From the NCBI GenBank assembly GCA_050178035.1, contig JBFXGK010000001.1, positions 128,679 through 192,678 on the forward strand: DNA of 64,000 nucleotides. The letters run 5' to 3'. Positions 5,023 to 29,788 of this stretch are shown in pieces. This DNA comes from Kiritimatiellia bacterium (lineage in GTDB: Bacteria > Verrucomicrobiota > Kiritimatiellia > JAKQHR01). Under the pieces are notes generated by a model. That model ran no database searches and was not told the DNA's origin. It was given only the letters and a program-made list of their open reading frames with translations. A program made the translations under genes and the position numbers. The number at the start of each line of letters is the position of its first letter. Within the stretch, counting starts at the first letter, position 1.

Positions 5023-5023
5023 T

Positions 5024-5527: not shown

Positions 5528-5531
5528 CGCC

Positions 5532-6038: not shown

Positions 6039-6039
6039 C

Positions 6040-6843: not shown

Positions 6844-6856
6844 GTCTTTTCCTTCC

Positions 6857-7723: not shown

Positions 7724-7752
7724 GCTTTGCCTCCATCGGCCTTTTCAAAAAG

Positions 7753-7829
7753 TTCCAATGATTGGAAGTTTCTTTCTGAAAAGTTCCAACCATTGGAAAA
7801 TCTAAACACGATTCCTCCAATGATTGGAA
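7753..7829. promoter_or_regulatory. array of three 7-1-7 palindromes TTCCAAT-N-ATTGGAA, 31-bp centre spacing, 30-106 bp upstream of dapA start
   Basis: Read directly: TTCCAATGATTGGAA 7753-7767, TTCCAACCATTGGAA 7784-7798, cTCCAATGATTGGAA 7815-7829. Confidence 0.5.
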
Positions 7830-7919
7830 GTTTTTACGCATTATTTTCCAGCGGCTGGAACTTAAAGTCAGCCTCCGGCCGACACCCGGAACGCTGGTGT
7901 CCTTCCGCAGAAAATCCGC

Positions 7920-7974
7920 GAAAATGCAAAATTTCGCAAAAAATTGGCATTTTTGACCGTTTTTTGCCATTTTT
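7920..7974. repeat. phased A/T-tract array, left part (interrupted by IS insertion)
   Basis: gaaaatgcaaaatttcgcaaaaaattggcatttttgaccgttttttgccattttt; T/A runs recur every ~10-11 bp. Confidence 0.5.
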
Positions 7975-9290
7975 GCACATCTGTCCCAGTATTACCGCCA
8001 CAGCATCAACTGGTTAGAAGAGGGAGGTGTTTCTGGGGAGGCGTCTGCCTGCTGAAAAGCCTGTAAAATGGGCACTTTTTCAAATAGCGAGACACTCAAG
8101 ACCTGTAGAATAATGTAGAGTGAAGCTTCTATTTTCAGCCGCTTCTTTATGATGGCGACCAGCAGATATACTGTGATCGCAATCCAGATTTGAGATTTAA
8201 CCGCATTGGGCGAGGTTCCGTAGAATGACTTGATCCGCAGATTCTGCTTGATCCATTTAAAAAATATTTCGATGTTCCAGCGGCCCTTGAAAAGTTCTGC
8301 AACCGTGAGGGGAGGAAGTGAAAAATTATTGGTAAGGAAAACCAGCGTCCGGTTTTCCTGATCACGATACTTGATGCGCCGGAGATGTTCCGGAAAGTAT
8401 CGGGCTGTCTGTGTACCCGTGAGAATGATGGTCTGATCGCAAAGGATGCCGCAGTCTCTATCGGATGGATGGGAGTAGATACGTTGGAACTGAAGATTGG
8501 ATCGGGCCCGTGTAACAAAATAGGCTTTAAGCGAGTGTAGCAGATAAAGGCGTTTGAAATCCAAATAGGCGCGGTCCATTACATAGTAGGCTCCGGGAAC
8601 CGGCAGGATGTGATCCAATACACTGGCATCACCTCGTTTGCCATCTGTAATCAGTATATATTCCGGGATATTGCCGGATAAGTTGAGAAGGGTATGCATC
8701 TTCACGGCCCCTTTGGTCCGGCAGAAATGAGCCCAAGGAAACATCGAAAGACACAGGTCGATCACCGTTGAGTCCAATGCGTATACATCGGCACCCAAAT
8801 CCGGCATCAGCGGATCATCCGCGTATAATCGTCTGGCCTCAGGAATCAGGACGTGAGCAAAATCAGCGTAGATGCGCCAGTCCCGGGTTTCGTTCGCAAC
8901 AGAAAGATTGTTGCGCGAGACGCGACTGTGAATCCCCAAGTGGTACAGCTTGCCGCTCACAGCCCGCAAACAGGATTCGATGTCCCGCAAACTTTCACGG
9001 CAAGTCAACTGAGCAAAGGCCATCACACGGAACTGCTCAGAGCACCGGAACGTCTTCACCTTGTAATCGCCCTGATAGCGATTCACCAACGTCTGAAATC
9101 GCCACCAGGGCAACTGCTGCATCAGCTGAGAAAATACGGTTGTTCCAGAATACATAAGGTTGATCTCCTCCTCCTGATCAACCTTATAGGAAAAACCAAT
9201 TTCAAGTCGGAAAGGATGTAATATCAACACATCCTTATGATGTAACGTGCGTTATAACTATTTTATGCGAAAACGTTGGGACAGATGTGC
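7975..9290 (-). mobile_element. IS element, IS4-family-like, ~1.3 kb, with terminal inverted repeats and flanking direct repeat
   Basis: Perfect 14-bp inverted repeats gcacatctgtccca (7975-7988) and tgggacagatgtgc (9277-9290); flanking direct repeat cattttt at 7968-7974 and 9291-9297 (7-9 bp depending on exact IR end); one DDE transposase ORF inside. Confidence 0.8.
7992..9155 (-). CDS. DDE transposase (IS4 family-like)
   Basis: ORF 7992..9230; start set to ATG at 9155 (MYSGTTVFSQLMQQLP...). Candidate DDE residues in YALDSTVIDL, YVMDRAYLDF, WNIEIFFKWIKQNLRIK. Confidence 0.85.
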   Translation of the reverse strand: MYSGTTVFSQLMQQLPWWRFQTLVNRYQGDYKVKTFRCSEQFRVMAFAQLTCRESLRDIESCLRAVSGKLYHLGIHSRVSRNNLSVANETRDWRIYADFAHVLIPEARRLYADDPLMPDLGADVYALDSTVIDLCLSMFPWAHFCRTKGAVKMHTLLNLSGNIPEYILITDGKRGDASVLDHILPVPGAYYVMDRAYLDFKRLYLLHSLKAYFVTRARSNLQFQRIYSHPSDRDCGILCDQTIILTGTQTARYFPEHLRRIKYRDQENRTLVFLTNNFSLPPLTVAELFKGRWNIEIFFKWIKQNLRIKSFYGTSPNAVKSQIWIAITVYLLVAIIKKRLKIEASLYIILQVLSVSLFEKVPILQAFQQADASPETPPSSNQLMLWR

Positions 9291-9350
9291 CATTTTTGGG
9301 CTTTTTGGGGGCATTTTTGACCATTTTTTGCACTTTTTCGTGGTTTTCAG
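9291..9350. repeat. phased T-tract array, right part (continuation across the IS)
   Basis: catttttgggctttttgggggcatttttgaccattttttgcactttttcgtggttttcag. Confidence 0.5.
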
Positions 9351-9371
9351 GTTGATGTTTTAAGGGCTTAG

Positions 9372-10739
<1,368 letters not shown>

Positions 10740-10756
10740 ATCAAATGAGACAAATC

Positions 10757-10790
10757 AAAACGGCGCCGTCCATTCAGGCGGCGCCGTTTT
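10757..10790 (+). terminator. intrinsic terminator candidate downstream of eno
   Basis: aaaacggcgccg-tccattcagg-cggcgccgtttt: GC-rich perfect inverted repeat followed by TTTT. Confidence 0.55.
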
Positions 10791-10804
10791 GACTGGATAC
10801 AGGC

Positions 10805-11113
10805 ATGACATTCTGGGACATGGTAACCAAGATTACGTGGGCGATCCTGATCGGGCTGCTGATCGTGGTGGGGATCAGCATGTTCATTCCCAGGATCCGG
10901 GAATATCATGAATATCAGCGCACGGCCGCACGACTCGCCGAGGAGACGCGCCATGAGGAGGAAATGATCAAGCATTTGAAGATGCAGCAGGAGCGTTTTC
11001 AGACCGATCCCCGCTTTGTGGAGTACATCGCCCACGAGATGGGCATGGCAAAAACAAACGAAACGATTTTCACCTTCATTGACGATCTCCCGCCAGCGGG
11101 CTCCGCGCAGTGA
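10805..11113 (+). CDS. ftsB: septum formation initiator family protein (FtsB/DivIC-like)
   Basis: 102 aa; N-terminal TM helix, coiled-coil segment, C-terminal motif FVEYIAHEMGMAKTNETIFTF resembling the FtsB conserved region; eno-ftsB adjacency is common. Confidence 0.6.
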   Translation: MTFWDMVTKITWAILIGLLIVVGISMFIPRIREYHEYQRTAARLAEETRHEEEMIKHLKMQQERFQTDPRFVEYIAHEMGMAKTNETIFTFIDDLPPAGSAQ

Positions 11114-11301
11114 AGATTGACGCACATAAGAAATTCGGGAAACGGGAATGCCCGGCGTGCGCGTGCGAGGTTTCCGCCAACAGCAACCGCTGCCCGATCT
11201 GCGGATACCCGTTCCCCAACCCCACCCCCGCACGGCGGATGTTCAAGATCATTGCCGCGCTGGTCATGCTCGGACTTTTCCTGCTGCTGATCCTGCGGTA
11301 G
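11110..11301 (+). CDS. small zinc-ribbon membrane protein (hypothetical)
   Basis: 63 aa; CPAC...CPIC zinc-ribbon pattern then hydrophobic C-terminal helix; start overlaps previous stop (ATGA). Confidence 0.4.
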   Translation: MKIDAHKKFGKRECPACACEVSANSNRCPICGYPFPNPTPARRMFKIIAALVMLGLFLLLILR

Positions 11302-11339
11302 AGATAATCAGTTTATGCAATCCGGCGGAATTCGCCCGG

Positions 11340-12395
11340 TCAGGGGGCCGGGCCTGCAACATTTACGGACGAACAGCATTTCTTCTTCGCGGGTTTGCGG
11401 CCGGACCAGAGGGCGCAGCCCAGCACAGCGGCCAGCGCAGCCGTTGACACCAGCTTCATCCAGTACGGCATCATGGCGTGCGCCATGTGGTCCACATGCA
11501 CATGATCCGGGATGATCACGTTGTCCAGCAGCAGCCCGAAGGCCAGCGCCGAAACGGCGATGGTCGCCAGATAGATCAGAACGGACTTGTTGCCCATCAT
11601 GCTGCGGATGATGGCAATGGTGGCCGCATTGGTGGCGGGGCCGGTCATCAGGAACACAAACGCGGCACCCGGCGTGATGCCCTTCATCATGAACGCCGCC
11701 GCCACGGGCACGGAAGCTGTCGCGCAGACATAGACAGGAATGCCCATCAGCATCATCACCACCATGGACAGGAAGCCGGTGCCCAGATATTCCGCAAAGA
11801 AATCCTCGGGGATCAGCGCGGTGATCAGGGCCGCTACCGCGAGGCCGATCACCATGTCGCGCGCAATGTGCTTCGGGAGGGTGATAAAGCCGTGGCGAAG
11901 CCCGTCCAGAAACCGGTTTCTTTTGTGGTCATGCTTCGCGCAGCAGGGATCTTCGCAGGGCTCAGGCACCTGATCGGGTCCCTTCCCGGATGAAAAATCC
12001 ACCAGCCATCCGCCCAGGATTCCCGTCAGCAGGGCGGCAATGGGACGCACAATCGCAAACACCATTCCCAGCAGGCTGTAGGTTACAAAAATACTGTCCA
12101 CCCCGGTCTGCGGTGTGGAAATGAGGAAAGCGGTGGTGGCACCCCTGCTGGCGCCGTGCTTGCGGAGGGAGGCGGAGACGGGGATCACGCTGCAGCTGCA
12201 CAGCGGAAGCGGCACACCAAAAGCGGAGGCCTTGATCACCGGCCATATGCCGCGGCCGCCCAGATGGCGTTCCACCGTAGAGGCGGAGAGGAACATGGAA
12301 AGAATGCCGGCCACAAAGAATCCAAACAGGAGGTATGGGGACATCTGCACGAGCACGTCCCAGAACGAATTCAAGACAGCCCAAATAGTTTCCAC
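11340..12395 (-). CDS. permease, ArsP/DUF318-like (putative metal or metalloid transporter)
   Basis: 351 aa, polytopic; Cys motif PLPLCSCSVIP reminiscent of ArsP-type permeases. Confidence 0.65.
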   Translation of the reverse strand: METIWAVLNSFWDVLVQMSPYLLFGFFVAGILSMFLSASTVERHLGGRGIWPVIKASAFGVPLPLCSCSVIPVSASLRKHGASRGATTAFLISTPQTGVDSIFVTYSLLGMVFAIVRPIAALLTGILGGWLVDFSSGKGPDQVPEPCEDPCCAKHDHKRNRFLDGLRHGFITLPKHIARDMVIGLAVAALITALIPEDFFAEYLGTGFLSMVVMMLMGIPVYVCATASVPVAAAFMMKGITPGAAFVFLMTGPATNAATIAIIRSMMGNKSVLIYLATIAVSALAFGLLLDNVIIPDHVHVDHMAHAMMPYWMKLVSTAALAAVLGCALWSGRKPAKKKCCSSVNVAGPAP

Positions 12396-12445
12396 TTCAC
12401 TATCTCCTTCCAGTAAAAATACTGCACCGATGGCTTTAGATCAAC

Positions 12446-12925
12446 TCAGAGCACCTCTTTCAGGGCGGATTCGTAGACCGAACGGTGATTGAAACCGCTG
12501 ATCTGGCGGAGCTGGCGGCCGTTCTCATAAATGCGGACATCGGGAATGCCCACTATCCCGGCAGCCTGCGCTTCGGCTGCATGTTTGTCCACATTCACCC
12601 CGACAAAGAGCACGCGGCCGGCATAATCCCCCGCGAGCTTGTCCAGCACCGGCTTGAGGCTCTTGCAGGGTGGACACCAGTCGGCATAGTAATCAACAAG
12701 AACCGCGCGGTTGCTTTGGACAATCCCCGCGATGGTTTCGCCGGGGGCAGGCAGATAAATGTTTTGCGGGGTGCGGGTGCCGATTTCATGCCACGCAATC
12801 AAACCCGCGATCACAGCGCCGATGAAGGCGCCGTTCACGGGGGCCAGATGCAGTCTTTTCACCTTCAGGCACGCAATGAACCCAATCAGTGCCCCAAAGG
12901 CCGCCGTTAAAATCAGGATCAGCAT
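12446..12925 (-). CDS. membrane-anchored thioredoxin-family protein
   Basis: 159 aa; N-terminal TM helices, WCPPC active site. Confidence 0.8.
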   Translation of the reverse strand: MLILILTAAFGALIGFIACLKVKRLHLAPVNGAFIGAVIAGLIAWHEIGTRTPQNIYLPAPGETIAGIVQSNRAVLVDYYADWCPPCKSLKPVLDKLAGDYAGRVLFVGVNVDKHAAEAQAAGIVGIPDVRIYENGRQLRQISGFNHRSVYESALKEVL

Positions 12926-17431: not shown

Positions 17432-18640
17432 TCACTCCTGTTTGATCTGTTTACAGATTTCCAATGCCTGATCTGCAAGCATACTACCGGCTTCCCGGCA
17501 AAGCGCAAGATCATCTGCCCGCGGCACATATTGGACCTGGATGGGCTCGCGGAGAATCCGGACTTTCATATCCTCAAGATATTCATTCACCTCCTGTGCC
17601 CCGCCCTTCGCCCAGCCATACGATCCGAATGCGAATCCCGCCTTGCCGGCGGGCTTCAAGCCCTTGAGATACGTCAGCACGGCTGCCGCCTGCGGCATCA
17701 GCGTTCCGTTCAGCGTCGGCGACCCGAAAGCAAATGTTGCCGCATCCAGCATCTCCGTGGCCAGCGTGGTGGTGTTGCTTGCCCGGATGTAGAACAGCTT
17801 GGCGTCAACTCCGGGCTTTGCGGCGCCTTCCAGGATGGCGTGCGCCATTTTCTCGGTGCTTTTCCACATGGTGTCATAAATGACCAGCACCTTGGGCTTC
17901 GGTTTGCAGACCATCCATTCGCTGTAGGCCTGCATGATTTCCTTTACATGCCTGCGCCAAATCACCCCGTGGCTGGGGGCAATCATTTCGACGTCCAGCC
18001 CACCCACCCCGCTCAGCACGCGAGCGATGGGTTTGCTGTAGAGCATCAGGATGTTTGCATAGTATGTCTTTGCCTCGAACATGACCGTGTTCAGCGGTTC
18101 CTCATCGTCAAAGCGTCCGGATGAGGCATAATGCTGGCCGAAGCCATCCATCGAGAAAAGAATCTTTTCCTCCGGCACATAGGTGGCCATGGATTCCGGC
18201 CAGTGCGCCATCGGCGTTTCCACAAAGACCAGCGTCCGCTTGCCCAGGGAGAGTTTGTCTCCGTCTTTAACAATCTTGAACTTCCAGCCGGTGATGTCGT
18301 GATGAAGCGCAAGAGCCTTCTGGCATTTGTCATCACAGACAATCTCCGCCTGCGGACAGGCGGCCACAACTTCCGGAAGAGAACCGGCATGATCCAGCTC
18401 GGCGTGATTGCAGACAATGTAATCAATCTTCCGAAGATCAATCAGCCTGCGGACATTGTCCAGCAGCTGTTTGCCAAAACCGGCCTTGACGGTGTCAATC
18501 AGCGCGTTCTTGCCGTCACGCACCAGATAGGCGTTATAGGTGGATCCGCGACGGGTTTCGTATCCATGAAAATCGCGGACATTCCAGTCCACGTATCCCA
18601 CCCAGTCAATGTTGTTCCGCAGGCTCGTGTTCATATGCAA
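17432..18640 (-). CDS. flavodiiron protein (FprA / rubredoxin:oxygen or NO oxidoreductase)
   Basis: 402 aa; metallo-beta-lactamase-like diiron domain ([14 protein letters not shown]) plus C-terminal flavodoxin domain. Confidence 0.9.
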
Positions 18641-18703
18641 TCTCCAGAATCAGCCCATATTAGACGCAACCGGCCGGGAGGTAAAGGTTCTTCGAACCGC
18701 GCA

Positions 18704-19045
18704 TCACGTCGCCGGCTGGCGAATCATGATCAGCAGCATTTTGAACTGCTTTTCCGCCCAGAGAGAATGCGGAACATTTGCCGGCATGATCACCAATTGC
18801 CCGGCCCGGGCAGTCAGCGGATTTCCGCCGATGTTGATAACCACCTCGCCGTCCAGAATCTGAACAGCCGCATCATACGGTGATGTGTGCTCGCTGAGCC
18901 CCTGCCCCGCATCAAAGGCAAACAGGGTCAATGAGCCCACGTCTTTGTTCATCAGAGTCTTGCTGACGACCGAACCGGAGGCATAGGCGACCTCTTGAAC
19001 AAGTTCAAGGGGCCGCCCTTTGTAGTCTTCGCTGCCCATGATCAC
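18704..19045 (-). CDS. cupin domain protein
   Basis: 113 aa; cupin motifs (GLSEHTSPYDAAVQILDGEV ... PANVPHSL). Confidence 0.65.
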   Translation of the reverse strand: MIMGSEDYKGRPLELVQEVAYASGSVVSKTLMNKDVGSLTLFAFDAGQGLSEHTSPYDAAVQILDGEVVINIGGNPLTARAGQLVIMPANVPHSLWAEKQFKMLLIMIRQPAT

Positions 19046-19410
19046 TCCGCGGGCGCGACAGGCGCTTCCGCCTCAGGGGCCTTTGAAACGCAGCCCGCTT
19101 TTTCCATCATCGGGCATCCGGCCTTGCCTTCAGCCTTCATGCTTTTGCAGCAGGCCATGCAACCAGGCGATCCCGCATGCTTTCCGCACTTCGGGCATAC
19201 CGCGGCGCCTTCTTTGCAGCACAGTTCCGAACCCGCAACCTGGCCGCATTTCCCGCACAGCGCGGGCGCAGCTTCCTCCGATGTCGAAGAGGCCTTCATT
19301 TCTGCTGCCGGTTCAACCGCCGCAGCGGCCTTCGCCGCGCAGCAGGGCCCGGCAAAGGAAACCGATGAAACGGCCAGCACCATTAAAATAACCATTATTC
19401 CGACTTTCAT
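19042..19410 (-). CDS. secreted cysteine-rich small protein (hypothetical, putative metal-binding)
   Basis: ORF 19042..19545; start set to ATG at 19410 (MKVGIMVILMVLAVSSVSFA signal peptide). Mature part has 14 Cys in CC and CxxC arrangements. Confidence 0.5.
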   Translation of the reverse strand: MKVGIMVILMVLAVSSVSFAGPCCAAKAAAAVEPAAEMKASSTSEEAAPALCGKCGQVAGSELCCKEGAAVCPKCGKHAGSPGCMACCKSMKAEGKAGCPMMEKAGCVSKAPEAEAPVAPAE

Positions 19411-19466
19411 AACACTCACCTTTCTTCCCTTGTGGGAATTGAAGTATACGCACCAGGGGCAATAAA

Positions 19467-20249
19467 TCAAATGGCCTTGATCGAAAGAATGTCGCCGGTG
19501 AGACTCATGACCGCTTCTTCCACCACCAAATCCTCCCGCCCGCATCTTTCAGCGGCAGCGCGAACCATCATGGTCAGTCCACCGCAGCAGGGAACCTGCA
19601 TTCTGACGACAATGACTTTGGGGATGGACGGCTCAGCAAATATATCGGCCATTTTTTCCACATAGCCGTCTGTACGATCCAGCTTTGGGCAGGCTACAAC
19701 CAAGCCCCTGCCCCGCAGAAAACGCCAGTGCACGTCAGCCGAGGCGATTGGTCCGCAGGTGCTCATCACCACCAGCTCGCGGTTCTTGAAGAACGGCGCA
19801 CCCGCCTGCACCAGATGCAGCTGCACAGGCCACTGCTGAAGCTCCGACGGAATCGCCGTGGGCATCTGCGCGTGGGTCGCCACCGCCGGCTTTGCGGCGG
19901 GAGCATCCGGCACACGCATGCGTGTGCCGGGACATCCCCCGCCCGACGGGGCCAGGCCATGCTTTTTCCCCGCCTCGTCGAACTTCACAACCGCCGCCGC
20001 GCCCTGAGTCTCCGCCACATGCATGCGCGTGGCATTGAAGTCAAAACCATCCGCCTCGCGCTCTTCAATGGTCAGCGCGCCGGTCCGGCATTCACCGATG
20101 CAGTCTCCGAAACCATCGCAGAACTGCTCCTTGACCAGTTTTGCCTTGCCGTTGACGATCTTCAGCGCGCCCTCTGCGCAGGATGTGACGCATTCGCCGC
20201 ATCCGTTGCAGAGGTCTTCATTGATCCTGATGATCTTGCGCTTTGCCAT
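19467..20249 (-). CDS. 4Fe-4S dicluster domain-containing protein
   Basis: 260 aa; N-terminal CNGCGECVTSCAEGAL and CDGFGDCIGECRTGAL ferredoxin motifs; further Cys pairs C-terminally; directly downstream of hcp. Confidence 0.7.
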   Translation of the reverse strand: MAKRKIIRINEDLCNGCGECVTSCAEGALKIVNGKAKLVKEQFCDGFGDCIGECRTGALTIEEREADGFDFNATRMHVAETQGAAAVVKFDEAGKKHGLAPSGGGCPGTRMRVPDAPAAKPAVATHAQMPTAIPSELQQWPVQLHLVQAGAPFFKNRELVVMSTCGPIASADVHWRFLRGRGLVVACPKLDRTDGYVEKMADIFAEPSIPKVIVVRMQVPCCGGLTMMVRAAAERCGREDLVVEEAVMSLTGDILSIKAI

Positions 20250-20250
20250 A

Positions 20251-21900
20251 TCACTTCCCGGCCATCATGGCCGCGACATCGGCCTGCACTTCGCCAGTCG
20301 GTTTGATGTCGAAGTTCTCAACCAGCACTTTGGCGACAGCGGGCGAAAGGAACGCCGGAAGCGTCGGCCCCAGGCGGATGCCTTTCACCCCCAGATGCAG
20401 CAGCGCCAGCAGCACCGCAACGGCCTTCTGCTCGTACCAGGCGATGTCGAACGAAAGCGGAAGGTCATTGATGGAGGCCAGACCGAACGCCTCCTTCAGC
20501 TTCAGGGCGATGACCGCCAGCGAGTAGCTGTCGTTGCACTGCCCAGCATCCAGCACGCGCGGAATGCCGCCGATGTCGCCGAGGTTCAGCTTGTTGTAAC
20601 GGTACTTCGCGCAGCCCGCGGTCAGGATGATCGTGTCCTTTGGCAGAGCCTCGGCTACTTCTGTGAAGTAGCTGCGGTTTTTGTGACGACCATCGCATCC
20701 GGCCATCACCACAAAGCGCTTGATCGCACCGGACTTGACAGCCTCCACCACCTTGCCGGCCACGGCCATGACCTGATTGTGTGCGAAACCACCGACGATT
20801 TCGCCGTTTTCAATCTCCTGCGGCGGCGGACACTTCTTCGCCTGCTCGATGATCGCGGAGAAATCCTTCTGCTTGCCCGGTTTGCGGTCGGGGATGTGCT
20901 TTGCGCCCGGCCAGCCGGCCATGCCCGTGGTGTAAAAACGGTTGAGATAAGAATCCTTCACCGGAATGATGCAGTTGGTCGTCAGCAGGATCGGCCCGTT
21001 GAACGAGGCGAATTCCTTGTCCTGAAGCCACCAGCTCCCGCCGTAGTTGCCGGCCAGGTGCTTGTATTTCTTGAAGGCCGGATAGTAATGGCACGGAAGC
21101 ATTTCTCCGTGGGTATAGACATCCACCCCCGTGCCCTCTGTCTGCTGCAGCAGTTCGTCCATGTCCTTCAGGTCGTGGCCCGAAATCAGAATGCCCGGAT
21201 TTTTGCGGACGCCGGTGGCAACTTTTGTGATTTCCGGATTGCCATAGGTCTCGGTATTGGCTTTGTCGAGCAGCGCCATGGTCGTTACGGCAATTTCGCC
21301 CGCCTTCAGGACCATGCCCACCATTTGATCAACACTGAGTTTCTGAGTGGTCGAGATCAGACCATCAACCACAAACCGGTAGATGGCGTCATCCTCATAG
21401 CCGAGAACAAGCGCGTGATCAGCGTAGGCCGCGATGCCCTTCAGGCCAATGATCAGAAGCTGCTGGAGCGACCGCACGTCCTCGTTCGGCTCGGACGGGA
21501 TGCCGACCAGAAGCGCCTTGACCTGCAGATCCTCGCCCTTCTTCGGAGCCCATGTCGCCGCGTCGGGCAGACTTTTCGCCCAGGCGGCGTCCTTCTTCTC
21601 GCACTGCTTGCGAATGGCGTCGCGCTGCGCAACAGCCTCATGGATCAGGCGGCTGATGACTGCATCGTCAAAGTTGGCATTGGTGATTGTGGAAAAAAGA
21701 CCGCGGATAATGGTCTGTCCGACTGCGCGGTCATACAGGCCCAGTTCATCGGCTTTCTTGCCGGCAATGGCCAGTCCTTTCAGAGAATGGATCAGAAGAT
21801 CCATCAGATTTGCCGTGGGCTCCTGTTTTCCGCAAACGCCCCGGACGGTGCATCCCTGATTCTTCGCGGTCTCCTGACACTGGAAGCAGAACATACTCAT
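20251..21900 (-). CDS. hcp: hybrid cluster protein / hydroxylamine reductase
   Basis: 549 aa; N-terminal [11 protein letters not shown]...CTVRGVCGK Cys cluster and full-length Hcp architecture. Confidence 0.95.
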
Positions 21901-22370
21901 GATTTTCCCTTTCCTTTTTTTGGTTGTTTATAAATTTCAGCCAGCGTTGTTTTCTCAAAGAAAGCGTTCAGGCGGTTTTGAAGAATGCAGACGGACCCCT
22001 TCATCGGGCATTTCCCGCTGTAGGGACAGGGCTGCCCCTTGCGGTTGCAGACATTCATATAGACCGGCCCCTGCACGGCCTCGACAATCCGTGCGAGGCT
22101 GATCTTCCGGGTCGGAAGGGCCAGCAGATATCCCCCGCGCTTTCCGCGCACGGTTTTCACGACTCCGGCTTTTGCGAGCGTCTGCATGATCTTGCGGAGG
22201 GCGGGCAGCGGCACTTTGCAGTCCTTCGCCAGTTCAAGCGTGTCGGTGCGGGTGCACCGCCGGTCCAGCACATGCAGTGCCCGGAGCGCGTAATCGGTCT
22301 CTCTTCTGAGTATTTCCATAAGCCATCCTTTAAATGCGACCAATTTAGTCCTATTTAACTCCCGCGTCAA
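21897..22370 (-). CDS. Rrf2-family transcriptional regulator (NsrR/IscR-like)
   Basis: 157 aa; [10 protein letters not shown]...GGYLLALP wHTH signature; C-terminal Cys residues; 4-nt overlap with hcp start. Confidence 0.85.
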
Positions 22371-22961: not shown

Positions 22962-24107
22962 TCAGAAGCTGATGTTGCCGCCGCCATCCGTGGCGGTTCC
23001 TGCGATGTTTGTGCTCAAAACGCTGAAGCGGTTGTCAGCATACACGTTGCCGGCTGCTGAAAATACGATGCCGGTGTCAGATCCGGTGATCAGGTTGTTC
23101 TCAATGCAGTTGCGCGCGTTGTTCACATGAATGCCGTTGATCCAATTCCACGACACATTGTTGCCTGCGACATGGCAGGAAAGACTCGCGGAAAGCCCCC
23201 CGCAATCCGGGTCTCTCAGGGAGTTGTTGTTTCCAATGGTGTTGTTGTGCACCGAGCACCCGGTAGAGGCATAAATTCCCCATTCCGCATTGTGCATGCA
23301 AACGTTTTCCCCGATACGGTTGTAATCACCTCCAGAAATTCCATTTTTTGCGTTTTCAGACGCCACATTGCCCTGAATCAAACTCGAATCCCCTGCAACA
23401 ATGCCGGAACTCCCGTTTCCGCATGATGCGTTTCCGGAAACAACGCACCCCTCACCGGCATAGATGCCCCAGTATCCGTTCCCGTACACAATGCACTCTT
23501 CAACCTGCCCGCAGTTCCCTATCTCGATCCCGATTGAGCTGTTGGAAACAACTGTCACACCGTCCAGGATGCAGCCCTCAGTAGGAAAATAGATCCCGAT
23601 GCCTCCGTTGTTTATGATGCGCAGACCAGTCACCCGGTGAGCCCGAGGTTGAGATGAAAGCATAGACTCATAGGCATAAACACCGTTTGCCCCGAACTGG
23701 GCAACCGTTCCGTTGCGTACTTCCACGTTGCGCACGTTTCCGATGTAAATGCCATAGTGTGACACATCCAGCGGATTTCCCGTCAGCGTGAATCCGTTCA
23801 GATCAAGGGCAACATGATCGGCTGAAACAGAGATCCCTCCTTGTGTCACTGTCATGTTGTCTGTCAAATAATAGGATCCGCTGTTGGTGATTGCATAATG
23901 ATAGCCTGAAGAACCCGGCGTGTTGATTGCGCTCAGCGCGGTCCGCGGCTCGGACAGCAGGGTTTGCTGGTGAATTTGATACAGAGTCTTCATTGACGGG
24001 GCGGGCGCGCCCGCCGGCATCAGCAGGCCCTGGGCCAATATGCACTGGGCCCACAGAAGTGCCGACGCAAAAATCATCAGATGTTTCAAGCCAGCCTTCA
24101 TAAGCAT
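22962..24107 (-). CDS. secreted right-handed parallel beta-helix repeat protein
   Basis: ORF 22962..24299; start set to ATG at 24107 (MLMKAGLKHLMIFASALLWAQC signal peptide); Gly/Asn-rich repeats typical of beta-helix (pectate-lyase-like) folds. The N-terminal extension in the track is translation of the T-tract array. Confidence 0.7.
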   Translation of the reverse strand: MLMKAGLKHLMIFASALLWAQCILAQGLLMPAGAPAPSMKTLYQIHQQTLLSEPRTALSAINTPGSSGYHYAITNSGSYYLTDNMTVTQGGISVSADHVALDLNGFTLTGNPLDVSHYGIYIGNVRNVEVRNGTVAQFGANGVYAYESMLSSQPRAHRVTGLRIINNGGIGIYFPTEGCILDGVTVVSNSSIGIEIGNCGQVEECIVYGNGYWGIYAGEGCVVSGNASCGNGSSGIVAGDSSLIQGNVASENAKNGISGGDYNRIGENVCMHNAEWGIYASTGCSVHNNTIGNNNSLRDPDCGGLSASLSCHVAGNNVSWNWINGIHVNNARNCIENNLITGSDTGIVFSAAGNVYADNRFSVLSTNIAGTATDGGGNISF

Positions 24108-24224
24108 CCTCCCTCTTCGGCCTTTGCAGGCTTTTGTTGGAAGAAATGCTATCAAATATTCCGCAGGAAACAATCGAAGAAACGAACCGGTTTGCGCGCT
24201 TCTCGATCTTTTGCGGCGAATTAT

Positions 24225-24315
24225 GAAAAAATTGACGAAATTCGGCCAATTTTGAGCATTTTTAGCCGTTTTTGGCGTGTTTTCGCTAATTTTGGCCATT
24301 TCGATGCTTTTTCAG
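24225..24315. repeat. phased A/T-tract array
   Basis: gaaaaaattgacgaaattcggccaattttgagcatttttagccgtttttggcgtgttttcgctaattttggccatttcgatgctttttcag; T runs every ~10 bp. Confidence 0.5.
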
Positions 24316-24330
24316 GCCCTGCGAAGAACA

Positions 24331-24540
24331 TCATTTGTTACAGCAGGAACCGGCGGATTTCAGACCCATTTTTTTGAAGATCATCTCCGCGGGGCAGAAA
24401 CCCGTAAAGGCGGACTGGATCAAATTGACGCCCACAAAGCAGGCCAGCAACAGCCACCATTGATTCACAAAATGCGCCAGCGCCACACTCACCAGCACAA
24501 GCGTTCCCGCTAGAATACGAATTGCATTTTCAACTGTCAT
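24331..24540 (-). CDS. DUF2892-like small inner-membrane protein (YgaP-like TM domain)
   Basis: 69 aa; two hydrophobic helices and C-terminal FTGFCP motif. Confidence 0.5.
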   Translation of the reverse strand: MTVENAIRILAGTLVLVSVALAHFVNQWWLLLACFVGVNLIQSAFTGFCPAEMIFKKMGLKSAGSCCNK

Positions 24541-24555
24541 GGTTTCTCTCCTGAT

Positions 24556-25815
24556 TTAGAAACTGTAGCGGGCGGAGGCATACACGTTATTGTTGTCCTC
24601 AAATTGCCCGAAGAACGTATAATCCTCGCTGCCCATAAAGACATTCCCGCCAAGCGTGAACTTCCAGTCATCTGTCGCCTTGTACGAAACCGACGGGCGC
24701 AAATAGGCATCCTCGTCCGAGGGCGAATAGAAGGCGAAGAATGACAGCATCAGGTTCTGGTTGAGAAGCTGCTGCGTGAGCCGCAGGGTCAGCACATGGC
24801 GGTCCTCATCCGCCGCATTCATTCCCACTGGCAGAGTCTCTTCGTAAGCATCGTAATCCGCCATCAGTTCCAAATAATATTGAACCGCAAGGGTTAAATC
24901 CTGCATCAGTTCCTGCTGGTATCCGGCCATCAGGCGGGTTTCGCTGTTGCGGATCATAGGGTCATCCCCGTCACAGTCATCGCGCGAGTCATAATAGCCC
25001 GCCTCCAGGTTCGCGATGCCCTTCATGAACTGACCGCGCAGGCTTGCGCCGTACACGCCCAGCTCAGGGAATATCGCGCGGCCGGTCGCCATGTCGGAAC
25101 CTGCCGGACTCTTCCAGAATCCCTCATGGCCATAAACCGCAAGTTCATAACCTTTCACATTGCGTGATACACGGACGCTGATTTCATCGTCCTCGAACCA
25201 TTCATCGGGAATGTCGGCCTCCACAACGGCATCCTGTCCCGATCGCGCGCCGAGCCCGGCGTTCCAGAAGGAAATGCGGTCGCCGGAAATATAACGGTCG
25301 TGATCAAAACGCGGCGTGTAGACCACATCAATGTTCGCCCACGACGGGAACAGGCTCAGCTTCAGCGCATCAGACGGGGCCTTCAAATATTCCTCGTCGC
25401 GACCGATGAAAAATGAATTCCAATCTTTTGGGAACATGTCGTTGATGAACAGCAGGTCGCCCGTGCCCCAGGTCAGGATCTGGCGGCCGGCCTTCAGGTC
25501 CGCCCAGCTCACCGGCGATGCCGAAACATTGGCCTCGCGCAGGTCGATGGCCCCCTCGCCCGTTTCCAGGTCAATGTCATGCTCGTCCAGAACCCAGTCA
25601 TAGAGGAAATCCGACCGTAACTGGAGCGTCAGCGGACCCGCATACTCCAGAACGTCAAGCTGCAGGCGCAGTTCTCCAAGGCTTTCTTTCTCCTGGTTCG
25701 GATCAGTCTGCGTCCGCACGCCCGCGCGCACATCGGCAAAGCCATGCAGATCAACTGCCCGCGCAGCCCCGGCGGCGAGCATGAAGACGGTGAGAAAAAC
25801 AAGCGATCTTTTCAT
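24556..25815 (-). CDS. putative outer-membrane beta-barrel protein
   Basis: 419 aa; signal peptide MKRSLVFLTVFMLAAGAARA, alternating amphipathic strands, C-terminal aromatic YSF. Confidence 0.65.
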   Translation of the reverse strand: MKRSLVFLTVFMLAAGAARAVDLHGFADVRAGVRTQTDPNQEKESLGELRLQLDVLEYAGPLTLQLRSDFLYDWVLDEHDIDLETGEGAIDLREANVSASPVSWADLKAGRQILTWGTGDLLFINDMFPKDWNSFFIGRDEEYLKAPSDALKLSLFPSWANIDVVYTPRFDHDRYISGDRISFWNAGLGARSGQDAVVEADIPDEWFEDDEISVRVSRNVKGYELAVYGHEGFWKSPAGSDMATGRAIFPELGVYGASLRGQFMKGIANLEAGYYDSRDDCDGDDPMIRNSETRLMAGYQQELMQDLTLAVQYYLELMADYDAYEETLPVGMNAADEDRHVLTLRLTQQLLNQNLMLSFFAFYSPSDEDAYLRPSVSYKATDDWKFTLGGNVFMGSEDYTFFGQFEDNNNVYASARYSF

Positions 25816-25823
25816 TTCACTCC

Positions 25824-26612
25824 TCAGCGGGTGGCTTCACGCGGCGGACGTTTCAAAAAGCGCTCGGAGAAAATGGCGTCGTTCAGTCCAATATCGTACT
25901 TCACGCCGCTGAACGCATTGACGGTTTTACCGCCAGTGTTCAGGTCGCTGACCACCGATTCCATGACCGTCGGATACCCCTGAATGGTCTCAACCTTCGT
26001 GCCCTCGACGCGGCGGTAGAGTTTGCCGTTCTTGTCGTAATACTCGGCTTTGCGCGGAAGGAATGTGTCCCGATCAATCCAGACATTGTAAAAGGAAAAC
26101 TCCACTGATCCGGGATCTTTGGGAGTGTTCTTGATCTGGTACTGGCCGCCCTCAGAGGAGACCAGTTCATGCTCATCCGCATTCAGGTTGCGGCCGGATA
26201 CATCCTCGTACACGAAATCCGAACCGACAAAGCTCGTGCGCTTGTCGCCGGGAGCGATGCGGCGGACCAGATCCAGCGCCGGCAGATACATCCATCGGTC
26301 ATCATCCTGCCCCTCGCCCACTTTCTTCCAGACCAGATACACCATGCGGCGCACATCGGCGGGTTCATTGAAATAGACATAGAACTTCTGATTCTTGTCC
26401 TCCGTGTTCAGGCGCAGGATGCGGAACTCGCGGACACGTTCGCCGCCTTTGGCGTCGGTGATCGACATCTTCACATCCGCCTGTCCGTCTTTGCCCGCGT
26501 AATACGCGGCATCATTGGCCTTCGTGATGATTTCATCAACGGTCAAATCAGCGGCAGAAGCAATACCAGCAAATGCAATTATGAATAATGCAGCAAGATA
26601 TATGGTCTTCAT
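25824..26612 (-). CDS. LolA-like outer-membrane lipoprotein-sorting family protein
   Basis: 262 aa; signal peptide; domain family usually paired with MMPL transporters. Confidence 0.55.
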   Translation of the reverse strand: MKTIYLAALFIIAFAGIASAADLTVDEIITKANDAAYYAGKDGQADVKMSITDAKGGERVREFRILRLNTEDKNQKFYVYFNEPADVRRMVYLVWKKVGEGQDDDRWMYLPALDLVRRIAPGDKRTSFVGSDFVYEDVSGRNLNADEHELVSSEGGQYQIKNTPKDPGSVEFSFYNVWIDRDTFLPRKAEYYDKNGKLYRRVEGTKVETIQGYPTVMESVVSDLNTGGKTVNAFSGVKYDIGLNDAIFSERFLKRPPREATR

Positions 26613-26624
26613 ATCAGTCTCCTC

Positions 26625-29603
26625 TCAATTCTCTGTTTCATTCTTGAAAAGCACCTTCCGCAGCAATGTCACAAGCGCCACGAGAATAAACAGCGTCGCC
26701 AGCCAGGACACGAGCATGATCGCGGCCATGAAAAAGCCAACCGTCTTGTAGGGCACCAGCGGTGCGGCCAGCAGAGGGGTAAAACCAAAAGCAATCACAA
26801 TTGCATTGCGGCTGATGGCCATGGCCGGTTCCTTGAACATCTCGCGGCAGGCCAGTTTCCAGCTTCCGGCCTGCTTCTGGATTTCACGGGCGCGCTCAAG
26901 GAAGTGGATCGCAAAGTCCACGCTCAGGCCCAGGGTCAGCGCCGAGAGCACCGCCACCGGCATGTCGTAGTCCTTGCCGACGAGGCCGATCAGGCCATAG
27001 ATGAACGAAATGGTGACGGTCAGCGGGAGCATGGAGAGCAAACCCATCAGCGGCGAACGGAACAGAACCATCATCATAATGAGGACGATAATGAAACTGC
27101 TGCCGAGCGATGATAGCATGCCAACCACCATCTTATCCTGCCAGACGACATTCAAATAGGTCAGCCCGGCCCAGCCCGCCTGCAGGCCGCCCGGAGGAGG
27201 ATTGACCGCCATGTAATCTTCGACATCTTTCACCACAGCTTCCATGAACTTGTTGTCGCCGCTCTTGAGCTGCACCCAGATGTTGGCCTGCTGATAGTCT
27301 TTGGTCACCAGGTGGAACAGGCTGTCCTTTTTCTTGGAGCCCTCGAGCTGGGTGAACACCTGTGCGCAGGCGGAAGGTGTCTGCGGAATCGAATAGAAGG
27401 ATTCGTTGCGCTTTTTGTCGCCGTCATTTCCAGGCTCGAGATAGTTCAGTTCATACGAAGCCTTTTTCAATGCATCCACCGCCGAGCTGACTTTGCCGAC
27501 CACCTCATTCCCGACAATGTGCGCCTGCAGCTTCTCCACATAGGCGAGCACCTCCGGCTGCTTGAACAGCGGCGCGGAAAGATTGGCCTCCATTTCATAA
27601 ACAAACTCGCTGAACGACAGCGCCGTATATTCGTCACAAACCGCCAGCGCGGCGTTCTGCAAATCAGCGGCCGTGAGATTTTTCTGAGCTTCCAACTTCG
27701 ACAGCAGCGCAGCCCTGTCGCCCTCCCCCGCGCCCGCAGTTGCGTTGACGGCGGAAACCAGCGCGTCAAATGTCAGGCCTTCGGGATCAAGATAGTTGAT
27801 CTGGTCCGCCAGCGCATACCAGGAGGCCGAGGCTTCCTGATCAATCGCTTCGGCAGCCCGCACAAGACTTACAAAACATTTCCGCAAATCAGCCGACTGG
27901 ATATTCCGGTGCAACTGCTCCTGCTGCGCCAGTTGCGCAAGAAACCGCTTCAACGCTTCCGGCATTTTTTCGCCAAAACGCTTCTGAGCCTCTTCGCGAA
28001 TGATGGCCGCCTTCTCGAAGCAGTTAACAGCCTGCACTTCGGGTGAAGCCAGCGTCAGATAAGCGGTATACGTTCCGCCGAAATGATGATTCAGCACATC
28101 ATCCGCGACCCGGATGCGGTGCGATTTCACAAACCATTTGACGGGATTGTCGTTCACCTCGATGCGGGTTATGCCATAGACGGCGATCCCGATCACCAGA
28201 AGCGTTGCCACAATAATGAATTTCCAGCGCGCATACGAAAACTCTCCCAGCCATTCAAGGAACCGATCCAGCCTGGAATCCTTCATTTCACAACTGTGCT
28301 GGTCGTGAACTCTGCAGGCCTTGTCGAGCGACTTCTTCGAGACAAATATCATGATGTATGCCGGAACCAGCGTCATCGTGAGAACCCACGCCAGCATCAC
28401 GCCGAAGGCGACATGCAAACCAAAAACCTTGACCGGAGGAATCGGAGTGGTGGCCAGAGACGCAAAGCCCGCAATCGTGGTCAGGCTGGTGTAGAGCATG
28501 GGCATGAAAAGATGGCTGATCACATGCTGGATGGTTTTGCTTTTGTCCTGAAAGCGGTGATAAGTGTCGAAAAACTCGCTCAGGATATGAACCGAATCCG
28601 CCACGGAAATAGGCATCAGAAAAATGGCGATCATCGAGCTCATGATGTGCACATCATAACCCAGCCCAATCAGCAGCCCCATGGTGGTGATCACGCTGAC
28701 AATCGCGACTATCATCGGCGGGATGATCAGCGATATCCTGCGGAAGAACAGCAGCAGGAGCAGGAAAATCGCGACGCCGGCCAGCGGCGCGGAGGTGGCC
28801 ATCTGCACCAGCATCTCAACGCCAAATGTGTCCTGCGCCACCGGCTGACCGGTAATCAGCACGCGGTCCTCCGCAGGCCAGTCTTTCGTAAGCGCTTCCA
28901 CCAGATTGGCGACATTGAAACTGTAGGTTTTGGCGATGATTGGAATGTATACGCAGACAGCCTTTTCATCCTCGGAGACCAGCATCCCGTTATAGAGCGG
29001 GTTGTTCATGGCATCCTTGCGGATGGCCATGGCTTCCTCCCGAGTCTGCGGGGGCTTCTCCATGAGGTATTCGATCTTGAGCTGTCCCATGGCCGCCTGC
29101 TTGATGTTGTCCACCACGCCGGGGGCCATGATCTCGGGATTGATGATGACGCTTTGCCCCTCTCCATCGAACAGATTGTTCACGTCATGCCTGAACACAA
29201 CGCCCAGGGCGCGTTTCCACAAGCTCGCAGGGCGCAGCTCGGGAGTGACCACCTGGCCATCCGCGGGATTCACAACCGCCGGGCGGCCATCCTCCGTGCG
29301 GTTGAGACTGATGAGCTGCTTTGTCAGCGCATCCACACGGCCAAGAGTTGCGACATTGAAAATGCCGTCCGCGTGATTCGTGTTCACAATGCCGACGATC
29401 ACAAAATCATAGAGATTATACTTCTGCTTGATCTGGTTGTGGAACACCCGGACATATTCCTCCGGGGAAAGCATGTTCTCCGGGTCGTTGTCGAACTTCA
29501 CTTTTGGAAACTGAAGGGAAAACCCAATCACCATGGCCAGCACTGCAGCCATGACAAGCCACGGGTGCCGCACGCTGAAATTCGTCATTGCCAGTCTTTT
29601 CAT
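26625..29603 (-). CDS. MMPL/RND-superfamily transporter
   Basis: 992 aa; two 6-TM bundles each following a large periplasmic domain. Confidence 0.85.
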   Translation of the reverse strand: MKRLAMTNFSVRHPWLVMAAVLAMVIGFSLQFPKVKFDNDPENMLSPEEYVRVFHNQIKQKYNLYDFVIVGIVNTNHADGIFNVATLGRVDALTKQLISLNRTEDGRPAVVNPADGQVVTPELRPASLWKRALGVVFRHDVNNLFDGEGQSVIINPEIMAPGVVDNIKQAAMGQLKIEYLMEKPPQTREEAMAIRKDAMNNPLYNGMLVSEDEKAVCVYIPIIAKTYSFNVANLVEALTKDWPAEDRVLITGQPVAQDTFGVEMLVQMATSAPLAGVAIFLLLLLFFRRISLIIPPMIVAIVSVITTMGLLIGLGYDVHIMSSMIAIFLMPISVADSVHILSEFFDTYHRFQDKSKTIQHVISHLFMPMLYTSLTTIAGFASLATTPIPPVKVFGLHVAFGVMLAWVLTMTLVPAYIMIFVSKKSLDKACRVHDQHSCEMKDSRLDRFLEWLGEFSYARWKFIIVATLLVIGIAVYGITRIEVNDNPVKWFVKSHRIRVADDVLNHHFGGTYTAYLTLASPEVQAVNCFEKAAIIREEAQKRFGEKMPEALKRFLAQLAQQEQLHRNIQSADLRKCFVSLVRAAEAIDQEASASWYALADQINYLDPEGLTFDALVSAVNATAGAGEGDRAALLSKLEAQKNLTAADLQNAALAVCDEYTALSFSEFVYEMEANLSAPLFKQPEVLAYVEKLQAHIVGNEVVGKVSSAVDALKKASYELNYLEPGNDGDKKRNESFYSIPQTPSACAQVFTQLEGSKKKDSLFHLVTKDYQQANIWVQLKSGDNKFMEAVVKDVEDYMAVNPPPGGLQAGWAGLTYLNVVWQDKMVVGMLSSLGSSFIIVLIMMMVLFRSPLMGLLSMLPLTVTISFIYGLIGLVGKDYDMPVAVLSALTLGLSVDFAIHFLERAREIQKQAGSWKLACREMFKEPAMAISRNAIVIAFGFTPLLAAPLVPYKTVGFFMAAIMLVSWLATLFILVALVTLLRKVLFKNETEN

Positions 29604-29788
29604 ATAATCTCCTGATCCTCTTCGGGCGTTTTATACCACAAAAACGGCTTGTCCGAAGCAAAAACATAGCTCAAAATATCATTATATCTTGATATGTCAA
29701 TATATAGATTGCGTTTTCTGCGGAAAATCCTTTTGTTTGAATCCCGCACGCCCATCGGGTAACCTGTATCCGCTTTTAGAGTACGGAG

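Follow-up and report, generated by a model that had tools for sequence, protein, structure and literature searches.

Organization of the Locus

The window analyzed here is a stretch of 64,000 nucleotides from a Kiritimatiellia metagenome-assembled genome (MAG; contig JBFXGK010000001.1, positions 128,679 to 192,678), and the subject of this study is the four-gene operon at window positions 24331-29603, which encodes an MMPL pump, a LolA-like carrier, a beta-barrel and a small DUF2892 protein (Table 1). The first three genes, hereafter referred to as the triad, are conserved together across phyla and probably encode an exporter. An earlier reading of the locus, made from the sequence only, had described four co-oriented genes separated by gaps of 12-15 bp. 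All four open reading frames (ORFs; 4/4) were confirmed on the minus strand, and the gaps, read from the pump gene to the DUF2892 gene, are 12, 8 and 15 bp, so that the given range holds for the outer two but not for the middle one. A plausible start is present for all four genes, and an AGGAG Shine-Dalgarno sequence lies 5' of the pump gene and of the DUF2892 gene. The proposed MMPL, LolA-like and DUF2892 families were borne out by matches to PF03176, PF17131 and PF11127, respectively, and the anticipated 419-aa barrel ending in YSF agrees with an 18-stranded AlphaFold2 (AF2) model of a protein terminating in RYSF.

Table 1. Features of the operon, with positions counted from the first letter of the window
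Feature	Position	Strand	Evidence
MMPL/HAE3-like RND-superfamily inner-membrane pump, 992 aa	26625..29603	-	PF03176, AF2 model, Foldseek
Periplasmic LolA-like carrier, 262 aa	25824..26612	-	PF17131 full length, signal-peptide-like N-terminus
Outer-membrane 18-stranded beta-barrel, 419 aa	24556..25815	-	AF2 model, partial PF06980, C-terminus ...ARYSF
YgaP-like TM/DUF2892 two-helix inner-membrane protein, 69 aa	24331..24540	-	PF11127
Promoter-like site 5' of pump gene: TTGACA, 16 nt, TGnTATTTT	29673..29700	-	Consensus scan, consensus match only

Pump, Carrier and Barrel Proteins

The pump matched PF03176 (MMPL) with an E-value of 2.2e-33 (116 bits against a cut-off of 20.5) in two stretches covering both halves of the protein, and it also matched sterol-sensing-domain models. 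This Pfam match, together with a pattern of long helices fitting 12 transmembrane (TM) segments and two large periplasmic domains (one following TM1 and one following TM7 in our numbering), places it in the RND/MMPL family. The best NCBIfam match was a partial one to HAE3 (TIGR00921), with 176 bits where the cut-off is 351.9, and the HpnN models gave 81.3 against 751.85 (TIGR03480) and 29.9 against 1100 (NF052374). HpnN, BstA, SecDF and HAE3 equivalogs were thus all rejected as identities of the pump, every score being far under the curated cut-off. The AF2 model (pLDDT 78, pTM 0.67) consists of long helices and two extramembrane regions (~36-252 and ~480-813), the second periplasmic domain carrying an all-helical bundle of ~170 aa inserted at roughly residues 528-700. 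Foldseek placed MmpL5/MmpL4 on top, some of these entries including a coiled-coil domain, followed by NPC1L1, Dispatched, HpnN and MmpL3, with Patched also matched; all of these relatives are transporters of lipids or hydrophobic molecules. Two Asp/His pairs, D336/H339 and D896/H900, are invariant across 32 pump homologues and lie inside AF2 helices 322-351 and 881-912, which we assign from the model to TM4 and TM10, the seat of the RND proton relay. The charged residues of such a relay are present as judged by conservation only, and the invariant pairs are located where an active relay would have them.

The carrier aligned over the full length of PF17131 (LolA_like; model positions 2-184 of 184) with an E-value of 1.5e-56 and 191.4 bits against a cut-off of 30, and is thus a member of this family. 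The match to DUF1329 (PF07044) reached 37.3 bits against a cut-off of 23.1 over ~80 residues only, the 262-aa carrier facing a 368-position model, so that PF17131 fits the protein far better. Among solved structures the carrier sequence matched 4z48 (9e-31), 9tp6 (7e-30), 3bk5 (1e-20) and 3buu. As read from the translation, the N-terminus is signal-peptide-like (...GIASA before AD) and has no lipobox cysteine, and therefore a soluble periplasmic protein is expected rather than a lipoprotein. No canonical LolA or LolB family was found among the Pfam matches of the carrier, and the NCBIfam LolA3 model gave 16.8 against 83. A canonical Lol system was hence dismissed, since its models were unmatched and the partner gene encodes an RND pump instead of the ABC transporter LolCDE.

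The AF2 model of the barrel has 18 strands (pLDDT 81.5, pTM 0.79). The translation starts with a signal-peptide-like segment (residues 1-20, ARA before VD, no lipobox cysteine) and ends in ...RYSF, so that signal peptide, even strand number and C-terminal aromatic residue are all those of an outer-membrane beta-barrel. Foldseek against the PDB returned generic porins and AlgE (TMq 0.55) with probability 1.0 and no informative relative, and the same structural neighbors, generic porins and AlgE, have been reported for DUF1302 proteins (PMC13499233). The whole protein scored 28.3 bits against a cut-off of 23.2 with PF06980 (DUF1302), although no single stretch passed, and the alignment is confined to residues 368-419 (model positions 493-541). 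In a profile comparison, the barrel family aligned over 383 columns with a Prevotella protein annotated as a DUF1302 family protein (hhalign 98.6%, E 7e-16), which itself matches PF06980 with an E-value of 1.3e-13. Since the profile aligns at full length with a PF06980-matching protein, the barrel is, on this indirect support, a short and divergent DUF1302 relative.

At least 100 columns of the barrel family alignment are invariant. The most conserved segments, GRQILTWGTGDLLFINDxFPKDW...EYLKAPSDA (residues 110-150) and residues 168-210, both fall in long loops, which by strand counting would be extracellular loops 3 and 4; in other barrels, loops 3 and 4 line or constrict the lumen. In the second of two clades of loci described below (clade B, e.g., L005, L008, L027, and L033), the median identity to the window proteins was 58% for the barrel, 52% for the carrier and 44% for the pump. 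The barrel is thus better conserved than its partners, an uncommon situation for a protein of the outer membrane and a sign that its loops may be under strong constraint. Some barrel homologues are longer at the N-terminus: P0017, P0053 and P0106 carry extensions with PxLPxGLG-type repeats (alignment columns 40-100), and the cluster representatives P0244, P0249 and P0279 reach up to 752 aa with ~300 extra N-terminal residues.

Conservation and Distribution of the Triad

A scan for the barrel with one genome per species gave at least 582 confirmed homologues, and the 80 best loci (55-64% identity) were analyzed. The carrier gene was found directly upstream of the barrel gene on the same strand in 66 of the 69 loci with enough sequence, and the pump gene upstream on the same strand in 54 of 58 such loci. 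Moreover, the distance matrices of pump, carrier and barrel correlate pairwise (Mantel r 0.50, 0.53, and 0.85; p = 0.001 each). These figures contradict the possibility, raised with the sequence-only reading, that the barrel is an unrelated porin with no co-conservation with the MMPL gene. The 80 loci span Verrucomicrobiota/Kiritimatiellia, Lentisphaerae, Planctomycetota, Desulfobacterota, Nitrospirota, Nitrospinota, Omnitrophota, Acidobacteriota and Alpha- and Gammaproteobacteria. The arrangement is therefore not due to chance; the three genes form a core that is co-conserved across phyla. In a wider profile search, 2,470 clusters of the barrel family (clustered at 50% identity) had E <= 1e-3, and 480 of these reached E <= 1e-30.

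The loci fall into two clades by pump identity (~62% and ~44%), the barrel being ~58% identical in both. Within each clade the phyla are mixed at 55-67% identity and the distribution is patchy, a pattern which we read from the sequences as probable horizontal transfer of the triad as a whole unit. Four ORFs that appeared as candidate pump-carrier fusions lie in the carrier frame, leaving 0 fusions among the 80 loci. Plasmid carriage was likewise discarded, as it came down to two matches, both on chromid-sized replicons predicted to be non-mobilizable. The triad was also encountered in MAG bins labelled Actinomycetota and 'Halobacteria archaeon' (L046 and L047), which most likely represents binning contamination and not a real presence in monoderm bacteria or archaea.

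More distant relatives vary in gene order and sequence. In Ilyobacter polytropus the order is permuted to carrier-barrel-pump and the barrel is 42% identical; this triad (L081, pILYOP01, 3432-12573) lies just after genes for an FAD oxidoreductase, selD, yedF and DUF3343, which belong to the trafficking of selenium or sulfur, and before an OmpA-family gene. Prevotella nigrescens has the order pump-carrier-barrel, with identities of 25% for the barrel, 31% for the carrier and 24% for the C-terminal half of the pump.

DUF2892, Regulators and Neighboring Genes

The fourth protein of the operon matched PF11127 with an E-value of 4.1e-13 (49.7 bits against a cut-off of 25.3) and contains two hydrophobic stretches, which makes it a DUF2892 protein; in the alignment, the family shows the conserved motif FVGxNLxQSxFTxxCP with an invariant Cys-Pro. 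Using the family hidden Markov model, DUF2892 was detected in 23 of 81 loci. In all except two of these it adjoins the core, on the upstream side next to the pump or on the downstream side next to the barrel; the two exceptions lie at distances of 1.7 and 2.6 kb, and elsewhere in flanks of up to ~10 kb no copy was detected. Occurring in about a quarter to a third of the loci, DUF2892 is thus a specific but facultative accessory and not a core part, so that of the four-gene conduit first proposed the pump, carrier and barrel stand as one conserved unit and the DUF2892 protein does not belong to it. A Nitrospirota MAG (L008 5743-6192) has two tandem DUF2892 genes upstream of the pump, of which tblastn caught only one.

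ArsR/SmtB-type regulators lie immediately upstream in 16 loci and DUF302 is adjacent in 8, and of the loci in the two clades, 18/29 and 17/31, respectively, have at least one of DUF2892, ArsR and DUF302. A similar co-occurrence is known from ygaV-ygaP of Escherichia coli, which encodes an ArsR-type regulator and a rhodanese with a DUF2892 anchor, whereas the DUF2892 protein of the window is a stand-alone protein of 69 aa with no rhodanese domain and no adjacent regulator. Neighboring genes were counted as 296 ORFs in two shells, considering the 25 commonest Pfam families per shell. The commonest families of the first shell (<=0.8 kb, 148 ORFs) were HTH_5 (13), ECF sigma factors (5) and sigma-54 activators (4). 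In the second (0.8-2.4 kb, 148 ORFs), raw counts were 3 each for DctP, TauE/SafE, Rhodanese, HATPase_c and Thioredoxin_2, with Thioredoxin and MBL-fold among the families counted twice, and HTH_5 was absent from the 25 commonest. No recurrent enzyme that would name the cargo was found among these families.

Three of the 16 regulators have a BigR/SqrR-like two-cysteine pattern (LLxLCxLC...LYC), most of them having a single conserved cysteine, and the regulators tested pass only the generic ArsR/SmtB model NF033788. They could not be assigned to BigR, for which the best score was 55.6 against a cut-off of 155. In an alphaproteobacterial MAG (L048 5368-6057), a protein of 229 aa encoded directly upstream of the pump combines an ArsR-type HTH with a rhodanese domain, a fusion that links regulation of the operon to sulfur-transfer chemistry. 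Fusions of MBL and rhodanese domains were found downstream of the barrel in L033 and L056. Taken together, the accessory and neighboring genes hint that the operon may be connected with stress from thiols, sulfur or metalloids.

Control Signals and Flanking Genes in the Window

Between the pump gene and the divergent gnd gene are 185 bp, and within them lies the promoter-like site of Table 1, which agrees with the consensus at 10 of 12 positions and has an extended -10 element. It is overlapped by a perfect inverted repeat read from the sequence, ATATC-AA-GATAT (29684-29695), which may be a candidate operator for a regulator encoded elsewhere. No convincing terminator was found 3' of the operon in a terminator scan, and an Rfam scan of the whole window gave no matches.

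Upstream the operon is flanked by gnd and the murC-murG cell-wall genes, and downstream by a gene for a NosD-like beta-helix protein and then by an Rrf2-Hcp-ferredoxin-flavodiiron cluster. No hopanoid, aryl-polyene or siderophore biosynthesis genes flank the operon, and apart from DUF2892 the flanking genes appear unrelated to the module. The NosD-like parallel beta-helix protein (22962-24299, minus strand) probably has its mechanical ORF start too far upstream, as GGGAGG followed by an ATG at 24101-24099 gives a signal-peptide-like start (MKAGLKHLMIFASALLWAQ...). It was rejected as a member of the module, since a homologue is beside the triad in 0 of 80 loci and the gene is ~220 bp away after correction of the start. 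The cluster beyond it (17432-22370, minus strand) encodes an Rrf2-family regulator (21897-22370), Hcp (20251-21900), a 4Fe-4S ferredoxin (19467-20249) and a flavodiiron protein (17432-18640), and looks like a nitrosative or oxidative stress operon.

Comparison With Described Systems

The closest described system is of the DUF1302/DUF1329/Ycf48-like/HAE3 type, exemplified by AmeABCD of Castellaniella defragrans and by cofit clusters of Shewanella, Kangiella and Pseudomonas, and not HpnN or aryl-polyene export. The window operon has a distant relationship to this type and would work in a similar way. The Ame proteins and those of Thalassolituus discussed below were compared with the window proteins by description only. 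Both AmeABCD and the window operon encode together a barrel of the DUF1302 lineage, a periplasmic protein of the LolA superfamily and an HAE3-like pump, both are without a TolC-type channel or a membrane-fusion protein, and for both an envelope-spanning export of hydrophobic compounds is proposed. However, the window operon has three core parts and AmeABCD four, and a Ycf48/BNR-like propeller (COG4447) was found neither in or next to the window operon nor among the 25 commonest families of either neighbor shell. Furthermore, the carrier is a PF17131 protein of 262 aa here and a DUF1329 protein of ~450 aa there, and the barrel has 419 aa with PF06980 at the C-terminus only, compared to ~600 aa. 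The gene order is pump-carrier-barrel here and barrel-carrier-propeller-pump there, the pump of the window has the extra helical periplasmic insert, and the accessories are DUF2892, ArsR and DUF302 in place of LuxR or AraC regulators.

In Thalassolituus oleivorans, TOL_3187 is a fusion of MMPL and LolA-like domains next to TOL_3188, an unannotated porin, so that pump, carrier and barrel functions stand side by side. Pump and carrier are one polypeptide there, in contrast to the loci of the present subfamily, and by analogy the fusion is independent support for a partnership of the two. The authors' reading of that system is alkane uptake or porin delivery. Among Bacteroidota, PG1178-PG1181 of Porphyromonas gingivalis and the TetR-ABC-ABC-MMPL-LolA_like-DUF1302 operons of Prevotella have the identical pump-carrier-barrel order, with all three proteins homologous, but differ in their distant sequences, in the TetR and two ABC transporter genes and in their induction by haem or iron limitation. 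The Prevotella locus examined encodes a shorter pump (805 aa) and has no DUF2892 or ArsR gene annotated. No paper characterizing the compact triad or this subfamily was found in the full-text literature; the compact triad figures in transcriptome tables of oral Bacteroidota, but is not known to have been characterized.

The sequence-only reading had likened the operon to HpnN and aryl-polyene systems, an analogy that did not hold. HpnN, a lipid transporter of the RND superfamily, does have a similar fold (Foldseek TMq ~0.5), but it functions with no carrier or barrel dedicated to it and is encoded within hopanoid gene clusters, and its models scored about 81 against 752 and 30 against 1100 with the pump. 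The aryl-polyene proteins ApeL (LolA-like), ApeM (RND) and ApeN (DUF3261, LolB-like) do pair an RND protein with a LolA-like one for a hydrophobic product. However, they belong to a polyketide-like biosynthetic cluster, for which we used the published composition (PMC8253772), and their outer-membrane partner is a LolB-like lipoprotein and not a beta-barrel. Neither in the flanks of the window operon nor in the listed recurrent neighbor families were aryl-polyene genes (ketosynthase, acyl carrier protein, dehydratase, acyltransferases, DUF3261) found, and the AmeABCD type is closer than either.

Proposed Function

We consider it probable that the triad is a three-component exporter, powered by proton-motive force, which moves a hydrophobic small molecule or lipid across the envelope together with an optional small membrane partner. 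A conduit from the inner membrane through the periplasm to the outer membrane is the best reading because all three families handle hydrophobic cargo. The carrier would take the cargo from the pump and shield it in the non-polar cavity of its LolA-like half-barrel, and it would then dock on the 18-stranded DUF1302-like barrel, with release at or beyond the outer membrane. The conserved, inward-facing loops of the barrel would provide a specific exit through the outer membrane. That the parts physically hand the cargo on, that transport is outward and that the cargo is hydrophobic are all inferred by analogy, and export is proposed because of RND precedent and of the relatives, namely AmeABCD, the cofit genes, the predicted complexes and the Thalassolituus fusion. 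Deletion of AmeABCD (DUF1302, DUF1329, Ycf48-like, and HAE3) reduced monoterpene tolerance and increased Nile Red accumulation (PMC6394551), and DUF1302, DUF1329, BNR and RND genes are cofit (bioRxiv 10.1101/072470). Complexes of DUF1302 with DUF1329 were predicted with high confidence by AlphaFold-Multimer (PMC13499233, PMC10866462), and the MMPL-LolA-like fusion of Thalassolituus, beside a porin, was induced on n-C28 (PMC6304351).

Several points weigh against this proposal. The outward direction of transport would follow by analogy from RND precedent only, and the authors of the two studies with the closest architecture read their systems as uptake or utilization of hydrophobic substrates (n-C28 in Thalassolituus, Tween 20 for the DUF1302/DUF1329 genes of Pseudomonas putida). 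The adjacency statistics describe this subfamily, i.e., the 80 best-scoring of at least 582 barrel loci (at least 55% identity), and there is no adjacent regulator at the window operon. In its behavior the operon resembles an accessory system that moves horizontally and responds to stress, and not part of housekeeping envelope biogenesis. In related genomes it often has beside it an ArsR/SmtB regulator, a sigma-54 activator or an ECF sigma factor, and it occurs together with DUF2892 and DUF302.

A more specific version of the export model would name the cargo as a chalcogen or metalloid compound, such as S8 or polysulfide from sulfide detoxification, elemental selenium or an organo-arsenical. 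The triad would then be the missing outer-membrane exit for hydrophobic products that form in the periplasm and inner membrane as Gram-negative bacteria detoxify sulfide, selenite or arsenite, controlled by ArsR-type sensors of thiols, persulfides or metalloids, with DUF2892 and DUF302 as sulfur-handling accessories. We regard all of this as unlikely in so specific a form, despite a number of observations that fit it. ArsR/SmtB regulators (16 loci), DUF2892 (23) and DUF302 (8) stand beside the triad, three regulators have the BigR/SqrR-like cysteines and one is fused to rhodanese. TauE/SafE, Rhodanese and Thioredoxin families occur in the 0.8-2.4 kb shell, with HTH_5 confined to the list of the first, and both the MBL-rhodanese fusions of L033 and L056 and the selD-yedF-DUF3343 genes before the Ilyobacter triad point the same way. 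Moreover, a DUF2892 gene was induced ~10-fold during oxidation of H2S to S0 (PMC5358917), and DUF302 is found in sox clusters and in a cyanobacterial arsR-sqr operon (PMC5037610, PMC5061849). On the other hand, these numbers are low, a sulfide:quinone reductase gene is not a consistent neighbor and about half of the loci are without any of these accessories. The regulators reach the generic ArsR/SmtB model only, mostly with one conserved cysteine and at 55.6 against 155 for BigR, and the window has DUF2892 alone, in an operon between gnd and an unrelated beta-helix protein. Finally, the version found in Bacteroidota responds to a different cue, limitation of haem or iron (PMC10434189).

Housekeeping delivery of a lipid, as by HpnN or the aryl-polyene system, is a rather improbable explanation. 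The pump fold does resemble HpnN, MmpL3, NPC1 and Patched, LolA-like carriers shield acyl chains, and in the aryl-polyene cluster an RND pump has a LolA-like partner (PMC8253772). Nevertheless, the pump is far under the cut-offs of the HpnN equivalogs, neither HpnN nor ApeLMN has a dedicated barrel, and lipid-biosynthesis genes neither flank the window operon nor recur in the families listed for the 296 neighboring ORFs. The patchy distribution and the adjacent stress-type regulators fit an accessory function better, and because of these two features and of the lack of biosynthetic neighbors we favor an exporter acting in stress or detoxification rather than a housekeeping role in lipid biogenesis.

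It is very unlikely that the system serves acquisition, in which the barrel and carrier would import a hydrophobic nutrient (a long-chain alkane, fatty ester or terpene) and the RND protein would act in assembly, in regulation or in removal of excess substrate. To our knowledge, RND proteins pump outward in every characterized case, and many of the triad-bearing organisms are presumably anaerobic polysaccharide degraders or reducers of sulfate, sulfur or metals, both of which count against import. Neither are catabolic genes conserved beside the subfamily among the 25 commonest neighbor families per shell, and the AmeABCD data favor efflux (PMC6394551). In favor of import, the Thalassolituus MMPL-LolA-like gene and the neighboring porin were induced 42-fold or expressed exclusively on n-C28 (PMC6304351), and the DUF1302/DUF1329, BNR and RND genes of P. 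putida were needed to grow on Tween 20 and butyl stearate (bioRxiv 10.1101/2020.07.04.188060).

Export of a siderophore, porphyrin or other metallophore is hardly credible. In its favor, the siderophore exporters MmpL5/MmpL4, including their periplasmic coiled-coil forms, match the pump best in structure, and the triads of P. gingivalis (PG1178-81) and Prevotella were up roughly 13- to 220-fold when iron or haem was scarce (PMC10434189, PMC10470040). However, the triad of Bacteroidota is distantly related (identity 25% for the barrel and 31% for the carrier) and comes with TetR and two ABC genes absent here, no iron-related family is listed for the 296 neighbors and no siderophore biosynthesis genes flank the window operon. 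The likeness to mycobacterial MmpL4/MmpL5-MmpS4/5 lies in a periplasmic insert, described as a coiled coil there and helical in the pump of the window. The insert is a bundle of short helices here and one long coiled coil in MmpL4/5, the identity is 10-12%, and the mycobacterial pumps have MmpS as partner and no LolA-like carrier or barrel.

Significance of the Triad

The passage of hydrophobic compounds through the periplasm and outer membrane is understood for few cargoes: lipoproteins, lipopolysaccharide and, in part, phospholipids. The exporter that we favor would be a very widespread alternative, in which an RND pump is combined with a soluble LolA-like carrier and a barrel of its own, with no TolC or membrane-fusion protein. 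Its barrel family extends over 2,470 clusters (50% identity), at least 582 species and at least eight phyla, and distant versions of the triad are among the most strongly haem- or iron-regulated operons of oral pathogens. The locus in the window is an ordinary member of this very large family, and the interest lies in the family. The pattern of accessory genes gives concrete conditions for testing the cargo, the identity of which would give a function to thousands of 'hypothetical' outer-membrane proteins and could bring to light a new export route, perhaps one that serves products of sulfur or metalloid detoxification.

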